Part shown: piece after piece, positions 12,727 through 64,000 of the stretch
Layout: each line of letters starts with the position of its first letter
Position numbering within the stretch: the stretch's first letter is position 1
Assembly: GCA_951406725.2 (NCBI GenBank)
Contig: OX597822.1
Coordinates: forward strand, 34,720,001-34,784,000
Direction of reading: 5' to 3'
DNA length: 64,000 nt
DNA from: Octopus vulgaris
Taxonomy: Eukaryota
Position numbers and translations under genes: made by a program
Notes under the pieces: model-generated
Database searches by the model: none
What the model was told of the DNA's origin: nothing
Seen by the model: only the letters and a program-made list of their open reading frames with translations

Positions 12727-14351
12727 GCAGCCAAAATGTTCAGAACGGCATTGTTTTCGTCAGCAAAGTAGGTATACGTTTTTATAAAAATTGTTTTATA
12801 TTCTATAATTTTCACAGACAATAAATACGATATTAATTGTTAATGTCTGAGATTTCGGTGTAATTTGACAGGATAATACAAAAGTTATGGATGATTTAGT
12901 GATTTACTGCAAAACCCATGGCGGCCAAAATAATCAGAATGGTTGAAAAAATAACAAAATAATCAAAAATGACAGAGAATGCTGGAATTATTTAATATTT
13001 AGTGTGAAACCCTTTAGCTTCAATCACACTTTGACATCTTCGACTGCATGAGGAAATTAAATTTTCAATTTCTTGCTGGGTGATCTTATTCCATTCTTCC
13101 TGAAGGGCATTTCATAATTGCTCGGTTGTTTTAGGATTTCTGGCTTTCGAACGTTCGCCTAGAATGTTCCACACATTTTCAATAGGATTGAGATCTGGCC
13201 TTTGAGCAGACCAATCCATAACAATAACCTTTTCAGCCTTGAGTAAGTTCATGACCACCTTAGCCTTGTGACATGGAGCATTGTCCTGCATGAATATGGA
13301 TGGTCGCTTAGTTGAATTTCTCAGCACAGGCAAGACATGATCTTTTACAAGTTGTTTATAAACTCCTGCATTTACCTTTCCATGTAATCGCACCAAAGGG
13401 TCCACACCATCTCCAGATATCATCCCCCAAACCATGACACTTCCTCCACCGAATTTAACACTAATCTTAAAGCATTTAGGCGACAATTTTTCACCTACTT
13501 TTCTACGAACGTACCTTTTCCCATCTGAGCCAAATAACATAAACTTAGATTCATCACTGAAATGCACAGTTTGCCATTTTTCTTGAGAACACAACAGATG
13601 TTCGGTTGCAAAGGTAAGACGACACTTTTTATTCTTGGAGCTGATCAGTGGCTTCACTGCAGGTGCTCTTGCTTGTAAGTCATGTTTAATTAAACGACGA
13701 GACACAGTTTTTCGAGATAAGGTTTTCTTCAGTACAATGCTCATATCCCGAGAAACAGCAGCAGCAGTTTTAAATCTGTCCTTTTTAACCAACTTTACCA
13801 TAGCACGATCTTCTCTCTTGGTCATTTTTCTTAGCCTACCTGTAGACTTTCTTGCTTCACACGAACCACAATCATCGTAGACCTTAAGAATACCGTGAAC
13901 AACACTTTTTGACTTGTTAACAATATTTGCAATAGACCCAATACTAAAATTATCCTTCTTTCGAAGCTTAATAATCTGCTGACGAATTGGTAACGGAGTA
14001 AGTGGCATTATATTAACAAAGTACACTGTAGATATTTTTTACTAATGTTTAGGAAACGAACCGTCACGTAAACAAATTCAAAACATTAGAGTTCGCCGGT
14101 TAAATATATTAAAACACGGAGTAAAAGCAACCGTTCTGATTATTTTGGCCGCCATGGGTTTTACAGTAAATCACTAAACCATCCATAACTTTTGTATTAT
14201 CCACTCAAATTACATCAAAATCTCAGACAATAACAATTAATATTGTATTTATTGTCTGTTAAAATTTTAGAATATAAAACAACTTTGATAAAAACTTATA
14301 CCTACTTTTCTAACGAAAACAATGTCGTTCTGAACATTTTGGCCGCAACTG
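12722..14351 (-). mobile_element. Tc1-family DNA transposon with 224-bp IR/DR terminal inverted repeats
   Basis: TIRs 12722-12945 and 14128-14351, each with two direct repeats (gc(a/g)gccaaaat..tcagaa(c/t)gg); inserted in (TA)n. Confidence 0.95.
12992..14008 (-). pseudogene. Tc1 transposase (DD34E), 338 codons, one premature stop
   Basis: HFSDESKF, VKFGGGSVMVWG, QDNAPCH-34 aa-PDLNPIENVW; TGA at 13112-13114, then the frame continues to ...EAKGFHTKY*. Confidence 0.93.
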
Positions 14352-15630: not shown

Positions 15631-15993
15631 ATTTAACAAGAATTGTATTAGCATTTATACATTTAGGCAGGTTTAAAGGAGTGGTGGTGGGGGACTTTTT
15701 TGGGGGTAGGCATAGCGCAAAATATCATACTTGGGGGAGTGGTCAAGGAGTCAGTGGTAAGTTAGATGAAAGAATAGATAAATAAAAAAAAAAAATAATA
15801 AAAAAAAATAAAATAAAAAAAAAAAAAAAAAAATTAAATTTAAAAAAAAAATAAAAAATAAAAAAATATATATAAAAAATATATATATAAAAAAAGGGGG
15901 GATAGAGTTATAGGTAAATAAGGAGATTCTCACTTATACCTATACACATATGTATACGTATCTACACACATATACATACACACACATATACAT

Positions 15994-16044
<51 letters not shown>

Positions 16045-16339
16045 TACACACACATATACATACATATCTACATACACACATACATACACCCGCCCACATA
16101 TACAAATTTATACACATGCACATGCATATACCTGTCTACACATACACACACGTATATATGCATACACTCACTCCCATGCATGCACGCATACACACATGTA
16201 TATATATACACACGACCACGCATACATATACACAGAAAAATATATATTCATACGCACATACACTCATGCACACACAACACACCTAGTTCCCTATATACAC
16301 ATATTTACACCTATATATACATACACCCACATACACATA

Positions 16340-16379
<40 letters not shown>

Positions 16380-16409
16380 CACGCATACATATATATGTGT
16401 GTGTGTGTA

Positions 16410-16440
<31 letters not shown>

Positions 16441-16766
16441 GTATATTTATTGGTGTATATGTATAGACTAGCCTCCTAAAGTGTAGACACGAATCTGTAG
16501 GTACGAGTACGTATGTGTATATACGTGAACGTATGTAGATGTTTGTATGTATGAATATAACGCGTGCGTACGTGTATGTGTATGAGTGTACGAATGGGTG
16601 AATGTACGTGCTAATGAGTGTGCGTGCGGGAATGAGTACTTGCCTTCTAGTAGACAGACAAATGGACATGCTGCCATAGCCAGGACCCTTAGCTCTAGCG
16701 ATCAAAGATAACAAAAGTAATAAATGAAGATAATAAAATTAAAATTAGGGAATGGGCCTGTAGTGG

Positions 16767-16811
<45 letters not shown>

Positions 16812-17239
16812 GTGTATCTGTAGGTATGTATAGGTACACATGTGTATGTGTATGTGTATGTATGTGTGTATATGTATGTATGTGCACACATGTATATATA
16901 TGTATGCGTGTATATGTATATATATATATATATATATATGTACATATGTGTATGTGGGTGTATGTATATATAGGTGTAAATATGTGTATATAGGGAACTA
17001 GGTGTGTTGTGTGTGCATGAGTGTATGTGCGTATGAATATATATTTTTCTGTGTATATGTATGCGTGGTCGTGTGTATATATATACATGTGTGTATGCGT
17101 GCATGCATGGGAGTGAGTGTATGCATATATACGTGTGTGTATGTGTAGACAGGTATATGCATGTGCATGTGTATAAATTTGTATATGTGGGCGGGTGTAT
17201 GTATGTGTGTATGTAGATATGTATGTATATGTGTGTGTA

Positions 17240-17289
<50 letters not shown>

Positions 17290-17650
17290 GGTGTGTATGT
17301 ATATGTGTGTAGATACGTATACATATGTGTATAGGTATAAGTGAGAATCTCCTTATTTACCTATAACTCTATCCCCCTTTTTTTATATATATATTTTTTA
17401 TATATATATTTTTTATATATATTTTTTATTTTTTTTTTTTTTTATTTTATTTTTTTATTTTTTTATTTTTATTTTTATTTTTAATTTTTTTTTTTTATTT
17501 ATCTATTCTTTCATCTAACTTACCACTGACTCCTTGACCACTCCCCCAAGTATGATATTTTGCGCTATGCCTACCCCCCAAAAAAGTCCCCCACCACCAC
17601 TCCTTTAAACCTGCCTAAATGTATAAATGCTAATACAATTCTTGTTAAAT

Positions 17651-19137: not shown

Positions 19138-19450
19138 GTAATCACCGGTTTACGATGAAAAGGAAGACCTTGTATGCAAATACTTAAGTGTTTTTCCAGC
19201 AACTTCCGTCACTGATTTCGAAAAACTGTCCGCAAGCAATAATAAATCTTCAGTAACACCCACCCTTTGTGGTTAGCCATATTGAGATGGCTATTATACT
19301 TTACAATGTTGAGCGGTTACTGTTTACATCTCGTTCAGAGATTTATTATTGATTGCGGACAGTTTTTCGAAATCAGTGACGGAAGTTGCTGGAAAAACAC
19401 TTAAGTATTTGCATACAAGGTGTTCCATTTCATCGTAAACCGGTGATTAC

Positions 19451-19495
19451 CGCCCGTTGACAAGAGGCAACAACCTCGAAACTGCGGTCTGTGCG
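19451..19495 (+). ncRNA. Hammerhead ribozyme, U3-A8 variant
   Basis: cgcccg-TTGACAA-GAGG(caacaa)CCTC-GAA-ACTGCGGT-C-tgtgcg; GUC site, predicted cut after 19489. Confidence 0.72.
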
Positions 19496-19805
19496 TATCA
19501 CTTAGGCTTACGAGAAAGGGATGACTTCCCTTTGCAAATACTATAAGGACACAGATAGTGTGCCTAAAGCCAGCTGGAGACGATGATCTCCTGGGGCTAA
19601 AAGCTACAGTAACACCCACCCTTACTGGTTAGCCATATTGAGATGGCTATTATACTTTACGTTGTCGAGCGGTTACTGTTTACATCTCGTTCAGAGATTT
19701 ATTATTGCTTGCAGACAGTTTTTCGAAATCAGTGACGGAAGTTACTAGAAAGACCCATAAGTATTTGCAAACAGGTCTTCCTTTTCATCGTAAACCGGTG
19801 ATTAC

Positions 19806-19850
19806 CGCCCGTTGACAAGAGGCAACAACCTCGAAACTGCAGTCTGTGCG
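19806..19850 (+). ncRNA. Hammerhead ribozyme, U3-A8 variant
   Basis: As above, with a perfect palindrome ACTGCAGT in stem III; predicted cut after 19844. Confidence 0.72.
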
Positions 19851-20454
19851 TATCACTTAGGCTTACGAGAAAGGGATGACTTCCCTTTGCAAATACTATA
19901 AGGACACATATAGTGTGCCTAAAGCCAGCTGGAGACGATGATCTCCTGGGGCTAAAAGCTTCAGTAACACCCACCCTTTGTGGTTAGCCATATTGAGATG
20001 GCTAGTATACTTTACATTGTCGAGCGGTTACTGTTTACATCTCGTTCAAAGATTTATTATATATAACTTAATTGGAAGTGGATGCGGGGCGTTCGTTCAT
20101 AAAATAACAAAATAATAAATAAAACATACGCATATATACATACATATATGTACATACCCACATCTATATGTATATATACAAGCATATATGGGTACAGGAC
20201 ACCAAAAAAAACGTAGAACATAATGAGAAATGAAAACATTAAGACAAAACATGGAAACGGACTTTTTTCAAACAACGAAAAAACAGAGCACAAGACAAAC
20301 AACACAAGGAATATTTCCTTTCTTCAACTGCCCCTGTTTCGGCTACTCCGTGTTTCGAAGGTAAGGGCAAGACACGACTTCTTGAAACAATCCTTCCCGC
20401 AAAGCAAATTAAATAAAATTTGAGATTTTTGCGGAGGGGTAAAATCCCATATTT

Positions 20455-27537: not shown

Positions 27538-27811
27538 TATTACGGAGATGTACTCGCATAGCAAGTGACCTGATCCGAGATCGTGTGCTGAAAAGAAAAC
27601 AATTGCAGCGTGGAAGGTGTTTATAAGCCATTTAAGAAACACACAAAATCCGTTAGATTCACTTCAACATTTAAATTTAATTTGTCAAAATATTTTCGTC
27701 GCTTCGAAACCACGACCTGTTCAACGACAAAATTAATTTTAAATGTTGAAGTGAATCTAACGGATTTTGTGTTTCTTAAATGGCTTATAAACACCTTCCG
27801 CGCTGCAATTG
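27538..27811. mobile_element. Fold-back HHR element, family E (decayed HHR on minus 27681-27731)
   Basis: Inverted arms at about 27600-27685 and 27725-27811; homologous to 31834-32122 and 63749-64000. Confidence 0.85.
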
Positions 27812-28710
27812 ATTTCTTATATAATTGTAAATATATATCACCGATACGCTAAGCTAAATATATAGCCGCTAAGCATTTAGCCCGGCGTGCTATCGATTCT
27901 GGTCCCTCGAAAACCACTGTCTTGAATCATAATAAAGGCTCTTGATTTAGGTACGAGTTGACTAACACTGCACGTAATTGGTCCCGGAGGTACGAAACGC
28001 AAAAAAAAAAGATTTAGCATGATTTGAATCATGCCAAATTTATAGCTCAGATAGACTTCCCAGCAGATGCTAAGCCGGTTCCACCAATTTTGTCGCTTTG
28101 CATAATGTACATAAATTAATCACGATTGATAGCTAAGTTAGTAGGAAATATAACAAAAACAGTATTTTCACAGCTACTGAACTTCAAACGACACTATACA
28201 TTTGTAATCTTAAAATGAAATTGTGAAGCATATTTGCTTCTTTTTTCTTTCACACACACACACACACTATCTTTCACATTAACAAAGTGGCTTCCAAACG
28301 GTGTGTCACGATATATTATTGTGAAGCTATGCTAAAATACAATAAAAGAATATATATATATTTATTTAAACGTGGAATATTTAACTGATGTTATATGCTT
28401 ATCGATTGAATAAAAAAGTACTTAATAAGTTTCTGTAATTTAAGTTTTTTTATATCTATAGGCTAAATTAAATATAAATGTCTATTGTTAATACGTTGTC
28501 CTATACTTGATGCAAAATGTGTTTCCAACTACAGATATTTACTTCAAAGCTGCTGCAAAAAGATACGATTATATTTTTAAAAAGAGTAAGTTACACACTG
28601 ATATTCTTGACGTTATTGTGTGAATAAAAAATTACGCAGGAAATAATTACCTGTAGCTTCATTATTTATATTTATTGATTAAATATATTTTTTATGTAAT
28701 TTGATGCTTT

Positions 28711-31694: not shown

Positions 31695-32193
<499 letters not shown>

Positions 32194-32651: not shown

Positions 32652-33408
32652 GATTTGATTTTGATTTTTCTAGTTTCAGCTAATGAGCTGTGGCCATGCT
32701 GGGGCACCGCCATTTGGTTTGCTACACGATTTTACCTCACGGATGCTTTTTAGCAAACGCCATCTGATGCATGAGAGAGTTCGATGCAGCTGCCCTCATC
32801 TGCACCTCCTGCCGTGAAGTTGGTTCATCCGGGACACCTGACAGGAAGAGATCCAGTCCTACTTTAAAGACATCCGCATCTACATCATGCAGGTCCCTCA
32901 GGTTCTTCGGGAGGATATTGAAGAGCTGTGGGCCTCTGAAGCCCAGGCTGTCACAGTATCTTGTCCTACATCTTGATGGCAAATTTGGAGTCCTTGGTAC
33001 TACGCAATGGCGTCCGGTTCTGGCATTTGTGTAACTCTCGATGCCAAAGTTTGGGACAAGTCCTTCCAGGATCTTCCAGATATATATTATGGCATATCTT
33101 TCTCGCCTACGCTCCAGGGAATAGAGCTTTAATATCTTGAGTCTTTCCCAGTAGCTCATATGCTGTACAGAGGCTATCTTCTTCGTGTAGCTTCGTTGGA
33201 TCGCCTCAAGTTCTGTGATCAACTTGACACTGGATGGTGACCATAGCTGAGAGCAATAGTCAAAGTGGCTTAGGACAAGTGTCTTCCAGAGGACCATCAT
33301 GGTTTCTTGTTCTCTTGTTCTAAAGGTTCTAAGAATCCATCCAGCCAGCCGTCTACATTTCATTGTCAGTTTAGCAACATGTACATGAAAGGTCGCGTCA
33401 TCACTCAT
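32652..33408 (-). pseudogene. 5'-truncated CR1/L2-group LINE (ORF2 C-terminus plus 3' tail)
   Basis: Open frame 33408 to 32737 with GWILRTF, DYCSQLWSP, LEAIQR, SYWERLKILKLYSLERRRERY; tail ends in short (aaatc)n repeats. Confidence 0.88.
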
Positions 33409-35411
33409 GTGTGTGTGTGGAGAGAGAGAGAGAGAGAGCGATAGACATAGGAAGAGGGAGACAAAGAGAGAGAAACAGCTTATCATTATATACAATGAAC
33501 CTTCAAACTTCATTGAGCCGTACCCAGTTAATCCGGATATCAAATAAACCAGACGAAATCTGAGTTAATCATGGATGAAAATGGGAAGATAATTTTTATG
33601 TTCCCAGTTACGAAATATTTGTGACAGGCTTCTGAGATAACACTACACAACCCATAACTAATAATATCATACAGCTTGGGCGGATGGCGAGATAATTCGA
33701 GAGGTGATGAAAATATGAACCGAAGATGAATAACATTTTACAATTTTTCACCAGTTCACAACATGTTAATTACTTGCTTTTACAACTCTACCTCTAAGAA
33801 ACATACGCTTTCTTTATTGCACTCAACAGGTCGCACAGACTTAGTATCTTCTTTTAATATTCGAATCCCATCATCATCTCTTCTCTTTCTATCTTTGTTC
33901 AGCTTGCTACTTACAAAGTAGCTATAAAATTTGCTGCTTGTATAATATTTATTCGCTTTCTAATAAACACCGCAATTTAGTGGAAAGAATTATCATGTAT
34001 AAATTCGCTGAAAATTTATAAGCTGAAAATAATTTACAGTGTACTTATTCTCCTCTTGCAGTATCATGATCAAATCCGCTCGTAATTTGTTTTCAGATCT
34101 AATAATATGCATTCAAGAAGCAAGCTTTAAGTTAGAATTAGTCTAAAATATGTGTATTTAGTTTTGATTTACTCTAGACTAGTAAACTCATCGGTAGCGA
34201 AGTAATAGAATGTTTCTCAGTATTATCAGCCGCCACCAACTGGGTGGACTTGGTGAGCACTACACAAACAACGAAGATAATAAATGGACAATCAGTACTG
34301 AGGATTTATTTACAGTTTTTAAATGTTCGTGCTGCATATTAGAACACTCCCTTCATCATTTTGATATCATCTGTACAGGTGTACGATGTGCTATGCGTCA
34401 GATGTTGAAGTGATAACAGAATAACTTGAGATGAAGTGTTTTGGTCAAAAAACACAATGCACCGCCCAAGAATGGAACCCACGATCTCGCAAGCGTGAGT
34501 ACAGCGCTCTGACCATTAGGCCATGCGCCACCATCGACGAATTAGGAGTGTGTATTTATTATAAACAACTCAACAAATGCAAAACTATAGATTTTGAGCC
34601 GCCATTTATGCAAATTGATTAGATGTTTTTTAATGACTGTAGACAGTCGGACAAGAATCACTGAGCTATAGTTTCAAATGTGTTTAAGTTCTCGTCAGCA
34701 ACCGTTTACTATGCAGTTAACTAACCACAGAAAAATTGTATGTAAAGCCATTTTTATTTGACCCTTTATTAAGTAAGGTAAAGTCCATTTTAGAAGATAT
34801 ACGTGAATACACCAGCAAGTTTGAACTTAGAATCACAAACCAACTAAACATTCTTCAAATACATGGAACTGTCACTGGTTTCATCTCTTGTCTCTGTGCA
34901 TAATCCATATTTACGCAAGGAGCAAACGAGAGAGACTTTACATAGTTAGCCTCCTAGAAATAGCAGTTAAAACATCTATCAAATCACCATCCACCGTTTT
35001 AGAAATGGTTAAGGAGAACAGTAAACGATGTAGCCTTTTATATCACATTTTGAGATAGGTCGCTCATGGCAGGAATGTTTTTAGCCATAGGTCTATTTGA
35101 TTGACAATTGTGAATGATAAGAGTTTAAATAAAAACGAATTTATATTTCAACGAACCGAAAACGAAAAATTCAAGCGTTTGTTTGACATGATACAAACAA
35201 CATCCAAATATCTCTTATAAATGAGCTCTAGCGCGTTAAAAAAAGGTAGGCGCATGTGTGGCTGTGTGATAAGAAGATTGCATCGCAATGACATGGTTCC
35301 GGGTTCAGTTCCACTGCGTGGAACCTTGCGTATGTGTCATCTACTCTAGCTTCGGCTCGACCAAAGCCTTGTGAGTGGATCTGTGGATCTGGTAGACGGA
35401 AACTGAAAGCG

Positions 35412-56116: not shown

Positions 56117-56279
56117 GAAAGTTTGTTTGGTAAAGCACGTGGGTGAATATATAAGAAAATAGTAAAGTGTGAAAAAACGACAGAAGGCTTAAATGTTAAA
56201 AAATATATATATTTGTGTCAAAATGTCTGGAGAATATTGGAAAAATTTTTTTTTTCCCTTTCCTTAAAATGACAAGGGA

Positions 56280-56786
56280 ATTAAAAGCTACAAACAGCCT
56301 AAATCACTTAAAAAGATTCTCACAAAGGCAAAATTGTCTTCTAAAATTACGGATGCAAAAGTAAAAAAATGTGGTAGATCGAACTGTGCAACATGTCCTA
56401 ACCTATTGGAAGGATCAGAATTCTACTTTAAAGAGGGACAGAAATTTAAGATCAAATCTAACTTTACTTGTGCCTCTGAAAACATAATTTATGTTATTAA
56501 ATGCTCGGGCTGCCACCAAGACTACGTGGGTTCCACGGGACTATCACTCAGGCGCAGATGCACACTGCATCGACAACAGATTGCATTCCCAGAATATAGA
56601 ATGATACCTTTTAGTGAGCACATTGAGAAATGCGCAAAGCAACTACTGCCACAATTTTTAATCTTCCCATTTTACCAATGTGCTTTCGGATCATCAACAC
56701 AAATGAGACTGAACAAGGAAACATTCTTCATTGAAAAGTACAAACCCAGACTCAACCATCCGAACATACTGACACAGAGAAAGTAA
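56280..56786 (+). pseudogene. 5'-truncated Penelope-like element: Cys linker plus intact GIY-YIG endonuclease (Neptune-like)
   Basis: Open frame IKSYKQPKSLKKIL...KKCGRSNCATC...FTCASENIIYVIKCSGC..YVGST..LRRR..H...H...RLNKETFFI...PRLN. Confidence 0.88.
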
Positions 56787-63584: not shown

Positions 63585-63618
<34 letters not shown>

Positions 63619-63685
63619 CATGTATGTATATATGTATGCATGATGAATGTATATATACATGTGTGTGTATGTGTGTATGTATGAT

Positions 63686-63751
<66 letters not shown>

Positions 63752-63887
63752 CGGAGATGTACTCGCATAGCAAGTAATTTGATCTGAGATCGTGTGCTGA
63801 AACGAAAACAATTGCAGCGTGGGAGGTGTTTATAAGCCATTTAAGAAACACACAAAAGCCGTTCGATTCTCCAACATTTAAGTTTAA

Positions 63888-63937
63888 TTTGTCAAAATAT
63901 TTTCGTCGCTAAACTCCGCGACCTGTTCACTGACAAA
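63888..63937 (-). ncRNA. Hammerhead ribozyme, G3-C8 variant
   Basis: tttgtca-GTGAACA-G-GTCGC(ggagttta)GCGAC-GAA-AATATT-T-tgacaaa; 7-bp stem I, 5-bp stem II, palindromic stem III. Confidence 0.72.
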
Positions 63938-63954
63938 GTCCGTGCTGCACGGAC

Positions 63955-64000
63955 TTTGTCAGTGAACAGGTCGCGGATTTTAGCGACGAAAATATTTTGA
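63955..64000 (+). ncRNA. Hammerhead ribozyme, G3-C8 variant (3' end cut by the window edge)
   Basis: tttgtca-GTGAACA-G-GTCGC(ggatttta)GCGAC-GAA-AATATT-T-tga... Confidence 0.68.

Follow-up and report, generated by a model that had tools for sequence, protein, structure and literature searches.

A head-to-head palindrome at the window end

The window analysed here is a 64,000-nucleotide stretch of the Octopus vulgaris genome (contig OX597822.1, positions 34,720,001 to 34,784,000). An octopus host is supported by a protein that its source labels Octopus vulgaris and that this genome encodes at 100% identity. At its end, two copies of a 208-nt unit lie head to head in (TA)n and form a palindrome centred on T63946. 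The long arm (63749..63949, minus strand) is a copy of the pseudo-LTR (pLTR) unit of a Penelope-like element (PLE), with its 5' end at the centre and its 3' end at (TA)n, and is a 99% match to the unit that ends full elements and precedes their ORF. This arm alone bears a tail of about 57 nt (63749..63805, minus strand). It also contains the first 30 codons of the PLE ORF (63749..63840, minus strand; ATG 63840-63838), a frame that continues into the reverse transcriptase (RT) ORF in the tandem copies L236 and L231. The short arm (63950..64000, plus strand) has no tail and runs past the window to about 64088. The arms meet in a 7-nt quasi-palindrome common to both (63943..63949), a microhomology with T63946 at its middle. 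A (TA)n-rich target run lies to the left (63610..63748), and another (TA)n run follows the right arm.

Each arm carries a minimal type I hammerhead motif. On the minus strand (63888..63937), stem I pairs 63931-63937 with 63888-63894 and stem II pairs 63918-63922 with 63905-63909. The core GUGAACA occupies 63924-63930, with G3 at 63930 and C8 at 63925, and is followed by an extra G at 63923. GAA lies at 63902-63904, the palindromic stem III at 63896-63901 and U17 at 63895, with the predicted cut at 63895/63894. The plus-strand motif (63955..64000) has its core at 63962-63968, stem II at 63970-63974 with 63983-63987, stem III at 63991-63996, U17 at 63997 and the 3' strand of stem I at 63998-64004. 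The window end clips it, leaving only the TGA of TGACAAA inside, and it is whole in the genome.

The original prediction had described a head-to-head palindrome with a 1-nt spacer at 63946 and the stems and GUGAACA core present twice; the sequence matches this description, and the palindrome recurs in the genome. Loop II had been named as the only difference between the arms. This holds for the 54-bp arm within the window, where 63914/63978 in loop II is the single mismatch, but two further differences emerge when the arms are followed past the window: a 2-nt deletion and the 57-nt tail confined to the left arm. As for a ribozyme on each strand, the motif is indeed present in both arms, but the arrangement is an ordinary inverted PLE insertion. 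It is no special two-ribozyme device. By computation, a read-through transcript would fold into a hairpin of about 140 bp (-251.8 kcal/mol) that buries both motifs. Only RNAs starting at the palindrome centre could fold the motif, and this copy has no TATA-like run upstream.

Two older head-to-head copies lie in the window. One (27541..27816) has a long arm with U3 and a short arm that begins just past the hammerhead, while the other (31834..32120) has a short arm with G5A and a long arm that begins at unit position 66. As had been claimed, their cores read UUGAACA at 27681 and GUAAACA at 31914.

The window also holds other elements. A fragment of another PLE (56268-56783, plus strand) comprises a linker and GIY-YIG and is 50% identical to a family with a 781-aa protein. 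By eye, a 308-codon frame (about 13115-14038, minus strand) resembles a Tc1/mariner transposase, and a 275-codon frame (about 32740-33564, minus strand) resembles a LINE 3' end. At 15953-17331, a 485-bp spacer separates the halves of a 447-bp inverted repeat (94%), and 2.3 copies of a 355-bp unit lie at 19244-20060.

A young Penelope-like element with the unit as its pseudo-LTR

Upstream extensions are found in 691 copies of the unit; when traced, they run into an ORF encoding YVDD, a CxxxCxxC linker and a GIY-YIG-like domain. The unit lies 3' of an ORF of 650+ aa in seven loci (L206, L208, L210, L211, L213, L220 and L223), and unit-ORF-unit tandems occur in three loci (L276-L278) as direct repeats 4.3-4.9 kb apart. 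An ATG at unit position 115 opens a frame that runs into the ORF. Because of these tandems and this frame, the unit is the pLTR of a young PLE with an RT and GIY-YIG ORF; it contains the start site, the hammerhead in the 5' UTR and the first 30 codons.

The ORF has a C-terminal GIY-YIG, the CxxxCxxC linker and a long insert in the RT. Its family profile matched a Pfam-positive RT/GIY-YIG PLE protein at 99.3% (E 1.4e-20, 666 columns). A Pfam search with the single ORF protein P0001 gave no match, and a PDB profile search returned weak bacterial RT matches only. Most ORF copies inspected are truncated or broken, yet they are 98-100% identical to each other, and the family is therefore young.

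The element has the marks of an endonuclease-bearing PLE: RT followed by GIY-YIG in one unit-linked ORF; a partial pLTR-ORF-pLTR tandem in which the pLTR includes the ORF start; and an inverted, 5'-truncated copy with a one-sided tail in an AT-rich target with a duplication. The described parts of earlier accounts of such PLEs (Arkhipova et al. 2013, PMC3846280; Craig et al. 2021, PMC8557442) likewise contain an inverted head-to-head copy, a junction palindrome, a tail at one end, a pLTR with TATA/Inr and the first codons, and a (TA)n target. The octopus tail is longer (about 57 nt versus 30-40), and, unlike those PLEs, the octopus family is dominated by stubs lacking the ORF body.

Other assignments were considered. 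The PLE with the 781-aa protein was rejected as the unit's partner, since its hammerhead differs and nothing links it to the unit. A non-LTR retrozyme was rejected since copies occur alone, head to head or attached to the ORF, and head-to-tail arrays of short units are absent. A MITE was rejected for want of fixed symmetric ends and a shared interior. At L051 and L255, an intronless ORF that by eye resembles dCMP deaminase in translation adjoins a unit copy; the same insertion recurs 6.2 kb away, which suggests a duplicated retrogene region.

A minimal hammerhead with an exchanged 3-8 pair

In each arm, the motif runs from stem I (TTTGTCA) through the core GUGAACA, an extra G, stem II (GTCGC/GCGAC), GAA, AATATT and U17 to TGACAAA. 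The extra G, which lies between A9 and G10.1, was absent from the earlier description. The features of a minimal type I hammerhead are present, including stems I and II around a core, G10.1-C11.1 and an extra base after position 9, and the palindromic stem III AAUAUU followed by U17 provides an NUH site. The core reads GUGAACA rather than CUGANGA, with a Watson-Crick 3-8 pair that is G-C here and C-G or U-A in relatives.

Folding of the 51-nt motif yields stems I and II with z about -3 (2 and 3 of 200 shuffles were equally stable); in the minimum-energy fold, G3 pairs with U17. An Rfam search at gathering thresholds gave no match. Frequent variants fall in 5 of 8 loop II columns versus 1 of 42 in the rest of the motif, where pairing is kept (p 1.5e-4). 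Outside loop II, the motif is no more conserved than the downstream sequence (1/42 versus 4/78, p 0.66). The UUU cleavage triplet had been called suboptimal, which overstates the case: U17 is frequent among the minimal hammerheads of PLEs, which makes UUU unexceptional. It was present in four of the relatives described below and in several published motifs.

Genome-wide, G3-C8 was found in 6609 of 7244 matches to a pattern in which positions 3, 7 and 8 were left free, with G3 and C8 then fixed; reversed control patterns gave 0 matches. The first 100 of the 7244 matches comprised 95 with G3-C8 and none with C3-G8. Among arms from 30 loci not picked by the core pattern, 24 of 27 carried G3-C8. 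Contigs of four out of four runs, under four organism labels, showed no variant at 5% or more at 63924-63930. The claim that the swap is the family consensus is thus borne out by both the pattern matches and the pattern-independent arms, and the count of genome copies proposed as a check shows that G3-C8, not C3-G8, predominates.

Relatives carry other pairs. A sister PLE, 57% identical, has a minimal hammerhead with C3-G8 and C9, and the young 781-aa PLE has one with U3-A8. A looser C3-G8 pattern gave 343 matches; none of the 20 inspected lay in the G3-C8 family and 19 lay in one homologous family. The alignment score of this homologous family was 125, versus 77.7 +/- 7.2 and a maximum of 103 in 300 shuffles, and its stem II differs from that of the G3-C8 family by a two-sided change. 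Among 31 metagenome relatives, five had a clear motif 100-400 nt after the ORF, three with C3-G8 and two with U3-A8; these motifs were chosen by position from 16 scan matches, and a reversed control gave 4. As judged from these comparisons, the swap is natural and derived, since G3-C8 is family-wide while sister PLEs carry C3-G8 or U3-A8. ADAR editing as its source was ruled out, both changes being transversions.

Several details of these relatives were recorded. The sister PLE is very young, with an ORF of up to about 1312 codons, and its motif occurs in L284 (50-110 and 4638-4700) and in most of L279-L308. In the 781-aa PLE (L087, L088-L110), the motif lies about 600-1000 nt after the ORF, and the 3' UTR contains CRE-like repeats. 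The metagenome relative L322 has U3-A8 with C9. Another PLE family, in L084 at about 2370-2425, has a C3-G8 motif in which stem II has U-U at its base and position 17 is G.

The motif class has precedents. In the covered part of the survey by Cervera and de la Pena (2014, PMC4209133), minimal type I hammerheads of metazoan PLEs share with the octopus motif the extra base between 9 and 10.1, G10.1-C11.1, a palindromic stem III needing a dimer, the common U17, the pLTR location and opposite-strand pairs 100-700 bp apart. That survey reports C3-G8 and one U3-A8 covariant, whereas the octopus family has G3-C8; the searched portion of its supplement yielded no octopus entry. Natural core variants described by Perreault et al. 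(2011, PMC3088659) covary at 3-8 in the same manner, but in the covered part only U3-A8 is named. In the portion of the octopus repeat annotation searched (PMC13282606), the words ribozyme and hammerhead are absent. The original prediction described G3-C8 as best known from an engineered mutant and apparently rare in nature, and indeed the literature searched contained only engineered uses and no natural G3-C8; that literature did not extend to the largest survey of PLE hammerheads (Lunse et al. 2016), to laboratory studies that exchange the 3-8 pair or to one of the supplementary files of PMC4209133. In the octopus family, a variant otherwise engineered in the laboratory probably occurs naturally. 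The palindrome and motif class are already known, and the G3-C8 core in about nine of ten copies is the unusual part.

RNA start site, templates and cleavage

Arms start at unit position 1 in 32 of 98 cases, and 18 of these 32 have an extra G ahead of it (p 1e-6; 13 of 27 without ambiguous ones, p 3e-4). A TATA-like run lies about 30 nt upstream of position 1, where the sequence also resembles a splice acceptor. An origin of the 5' end in a spliced leader or upstream exon was rejected, as 81 arms share only the element's own contiguous upstream DNA. The terminal pLTR would thus fire a short capped RNA starting at unit position 1. Contigs of runs guessed to be RNA cover the unit; they are uninformative on start, strand and level.

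Nearly all arms (96/98) start upstream of the predicted cut, so uncut RNA is the main template; the whole core is kept in 78 of 98, and a single arm (1/98) starts within 2 nt of the cut. Truncated copies were sampled as 33 copies joined to (TA)n among the first 100 of 337 matches, 31 of them solo. Ten of these 31 start before the predicted cut. The other 21 start at the cut or beyond it, a stretch that makes up 12 of about 31 positions (p 0.001), and eight of the 31 start at positions 58-61 (p 0.04-0.10); on inspection, two of the 31 are not true 5' ends. These starts may be a weak hint of some cut templates, though AT microhomology, or stalling at the foot of stem I, could have the same effect.

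Minimal PLE hammerheads cleave weakly and only as dimers, and G3-C8 has been reported as less effective with C17 than with G17 (data not shown in the source). The octopus hammerhead is predicted to cut only slowly, and as a dimer, and its position in the 5' UTR, between the start site and the AUG, may mean that weak cleavage is tolerated or favoured.

The hammerhead might instead be a dead relic, with cleavage unneeded for PLE insertion, two core changes fixed by drift in a single successful lineage and the stems kept for other reasons (promoter, UTR structure). The predominance of templates uncut at the predicted site fits this, as do the dispensability of cleavage in vitro for the anole PLE, in the described experiments (PMC11167929), the success of Naiads without canonical hammerheads, the lack of excess conservation over downstream sequence and the G3-U17 pairing available to the lowest-energy fold. 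We nonetheless regard it as unlikely: the two changes are exactly complementary and all other core letters are kept while the flanks have diverged from the sister families, and the truncated copies starting at or after the cut speak against it, subject to the stalling and microhomology noted above. Less likely still is a bolder proposal, under which this lineage would be the first among natural hammerheads to have a purine at position 3, its fold being retained chiefly to pair RNA molecules. Two uncut RNAs would dimerise through the palindromic stem III, reach both ends of one DNA cut and build the head-to-head insertions, with the G3-C8/U17 core slowing cutting and keeping templates whole.

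Head-to-head insertions and their origin

Taken in order along one contig, 45 of 87 loci are head-to-head and 42 are single arms; after removal of seven duplicates of one junction, 38 of 80 unselected loci are head-to-head. Arms end at one of two fixed sites, near unit position 147 or 206. The head-to-head loci combine a long and a short arm in 33 of 38 cases, with one long-long and four unclear (p 2e-9 for 33/34), and the same rule holds in kb-long copies and in the sister PLE family. A clean target duplication other than (TA)n flanks about 15 of the 38 (17 were flagged, two being TA runs), and 21 of the 38 sit in (TA)n. Junctions vary between loci, and the same microhomology junction turns up in more than one subfamily. 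Head-to-head insertion of this kind is normal for PLEs and already known. Eight loci on one contig (L044, L046, L141, L142, L145, L146, L149 and L169) have a common head-to-head junction and flanks, and the stub therefore rides there inside a larger amplified unit.

Comparison of the two arms bears on how they were made. The tail-bearing arm is the more 5'-truncated one in 11 of 33 loci, and in kb-scale cases as well, so that neither arm contains the other. In 4 of 29 loci the arms differ at three or more subfamily sites, and two of these lie inside a 12-bp target duplication. Overall, arms disagree at 10% of subfamily sites versus 40% by random pairing. In L206 and L212, both arms are truncated at the same base; L206 (460-5842) is a 5.4-kb palindrome in which the two PLE copies have ends of different length, one long and one short.

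The non-nested and mixed arms favour two cDNAs, apparently primed from both ends of one DNA cut, whereas the usual agreement between arms and the symmetric truncation count against this. The anole Poseidon PAc protein offers a parallel: in vitro (Frangieh et al. 2024, PMC11167929), it cuts both strands and extends them, RT begins at two sites within the start of the ORF, which define the tail, and unprocessed RNA serves as the template. The octopus family resembles PAc in the two start sites, the priming on both strands and the uncut template. PAc has C3-G8, and G3-C8 exists there only as the engineered C3G/G8C mutant, a partial rescue; the octopus ORF starts about 55 nt after the predicted cut. 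By analogy, the octopus protein would cut AT-rich DNA on both strands, one cDNA would be primed at the far start site, including the tail, and the other at the inner site, excluding it, and the two cDNA ends would join through a short self-complementary sequence to give the palindrome.

Self-priming of one template, proposed for rotifer PLEs, could instead yield the palindrome by fold-back, with centre deletions later. Head-to-head junction palindromes are read in this way in the relevant part of PMC3846280, and the arms of the young loci L009, L012, L016 and L029 share private variants. Fold-back explains the symmetric truncation in L206 and L212 equally well, and later centre deletions could create non-nested arms; conversely, arm agreement and symmetric truncation would also follow from one RNA copied twice. 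Given the 11 loci with non-nested arms, the two-haplotype loci within one target duplication, the mirror-image junction types and the occurrence of both T and A at the centre, we think fold-back improbable, though worth retaining. A self-contained mobile unit, MITE-like or retrozyme-like and copied whole with two working ribozymes, is far less plausible. About 1557 strand matches to a tight double-motif centre speak for it, as do 40 of 40 best matches that are palindromic (a selected set, the query itself being palindromic). This reading is largely refuted by junction diversity, with junctions that differ among loci and recur across subfamilies; moreover, the tail occurs on either side, single arms make up 42 of 87 loci and a read-through RNA would be a single long hairpin. 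An assembly or amplification artefact is scarcely credible in view of the target duplications, the long/short rule and the strand-switch joints in contigs of independent runs.

On balance, we consider it probable that the locus is a stub insertion of a young PLE, in which two head-to-head 208-nt end units were primed from both ends of one DNA cut, each bearing a natural G3-C8 minimal hammerhead predicted to cut slowly, as a dimer.

Implications

With a natural G3-C8 family, phylogenetic support for the tertiary 3-8 pair of the hammerhead becomes complete. Standard descriptors (CUGANGA) and Rfam miss thousands of such motifs. With young PLE families of C3-G8, U3-A8 and G3-C8 cores in one genome, the octopus offers a panel for studying the purpose of PLE hammerheads, and its thousands of stub insertions allow a test of self-priming against two-ended priming as the source of PLE inverted repeats.
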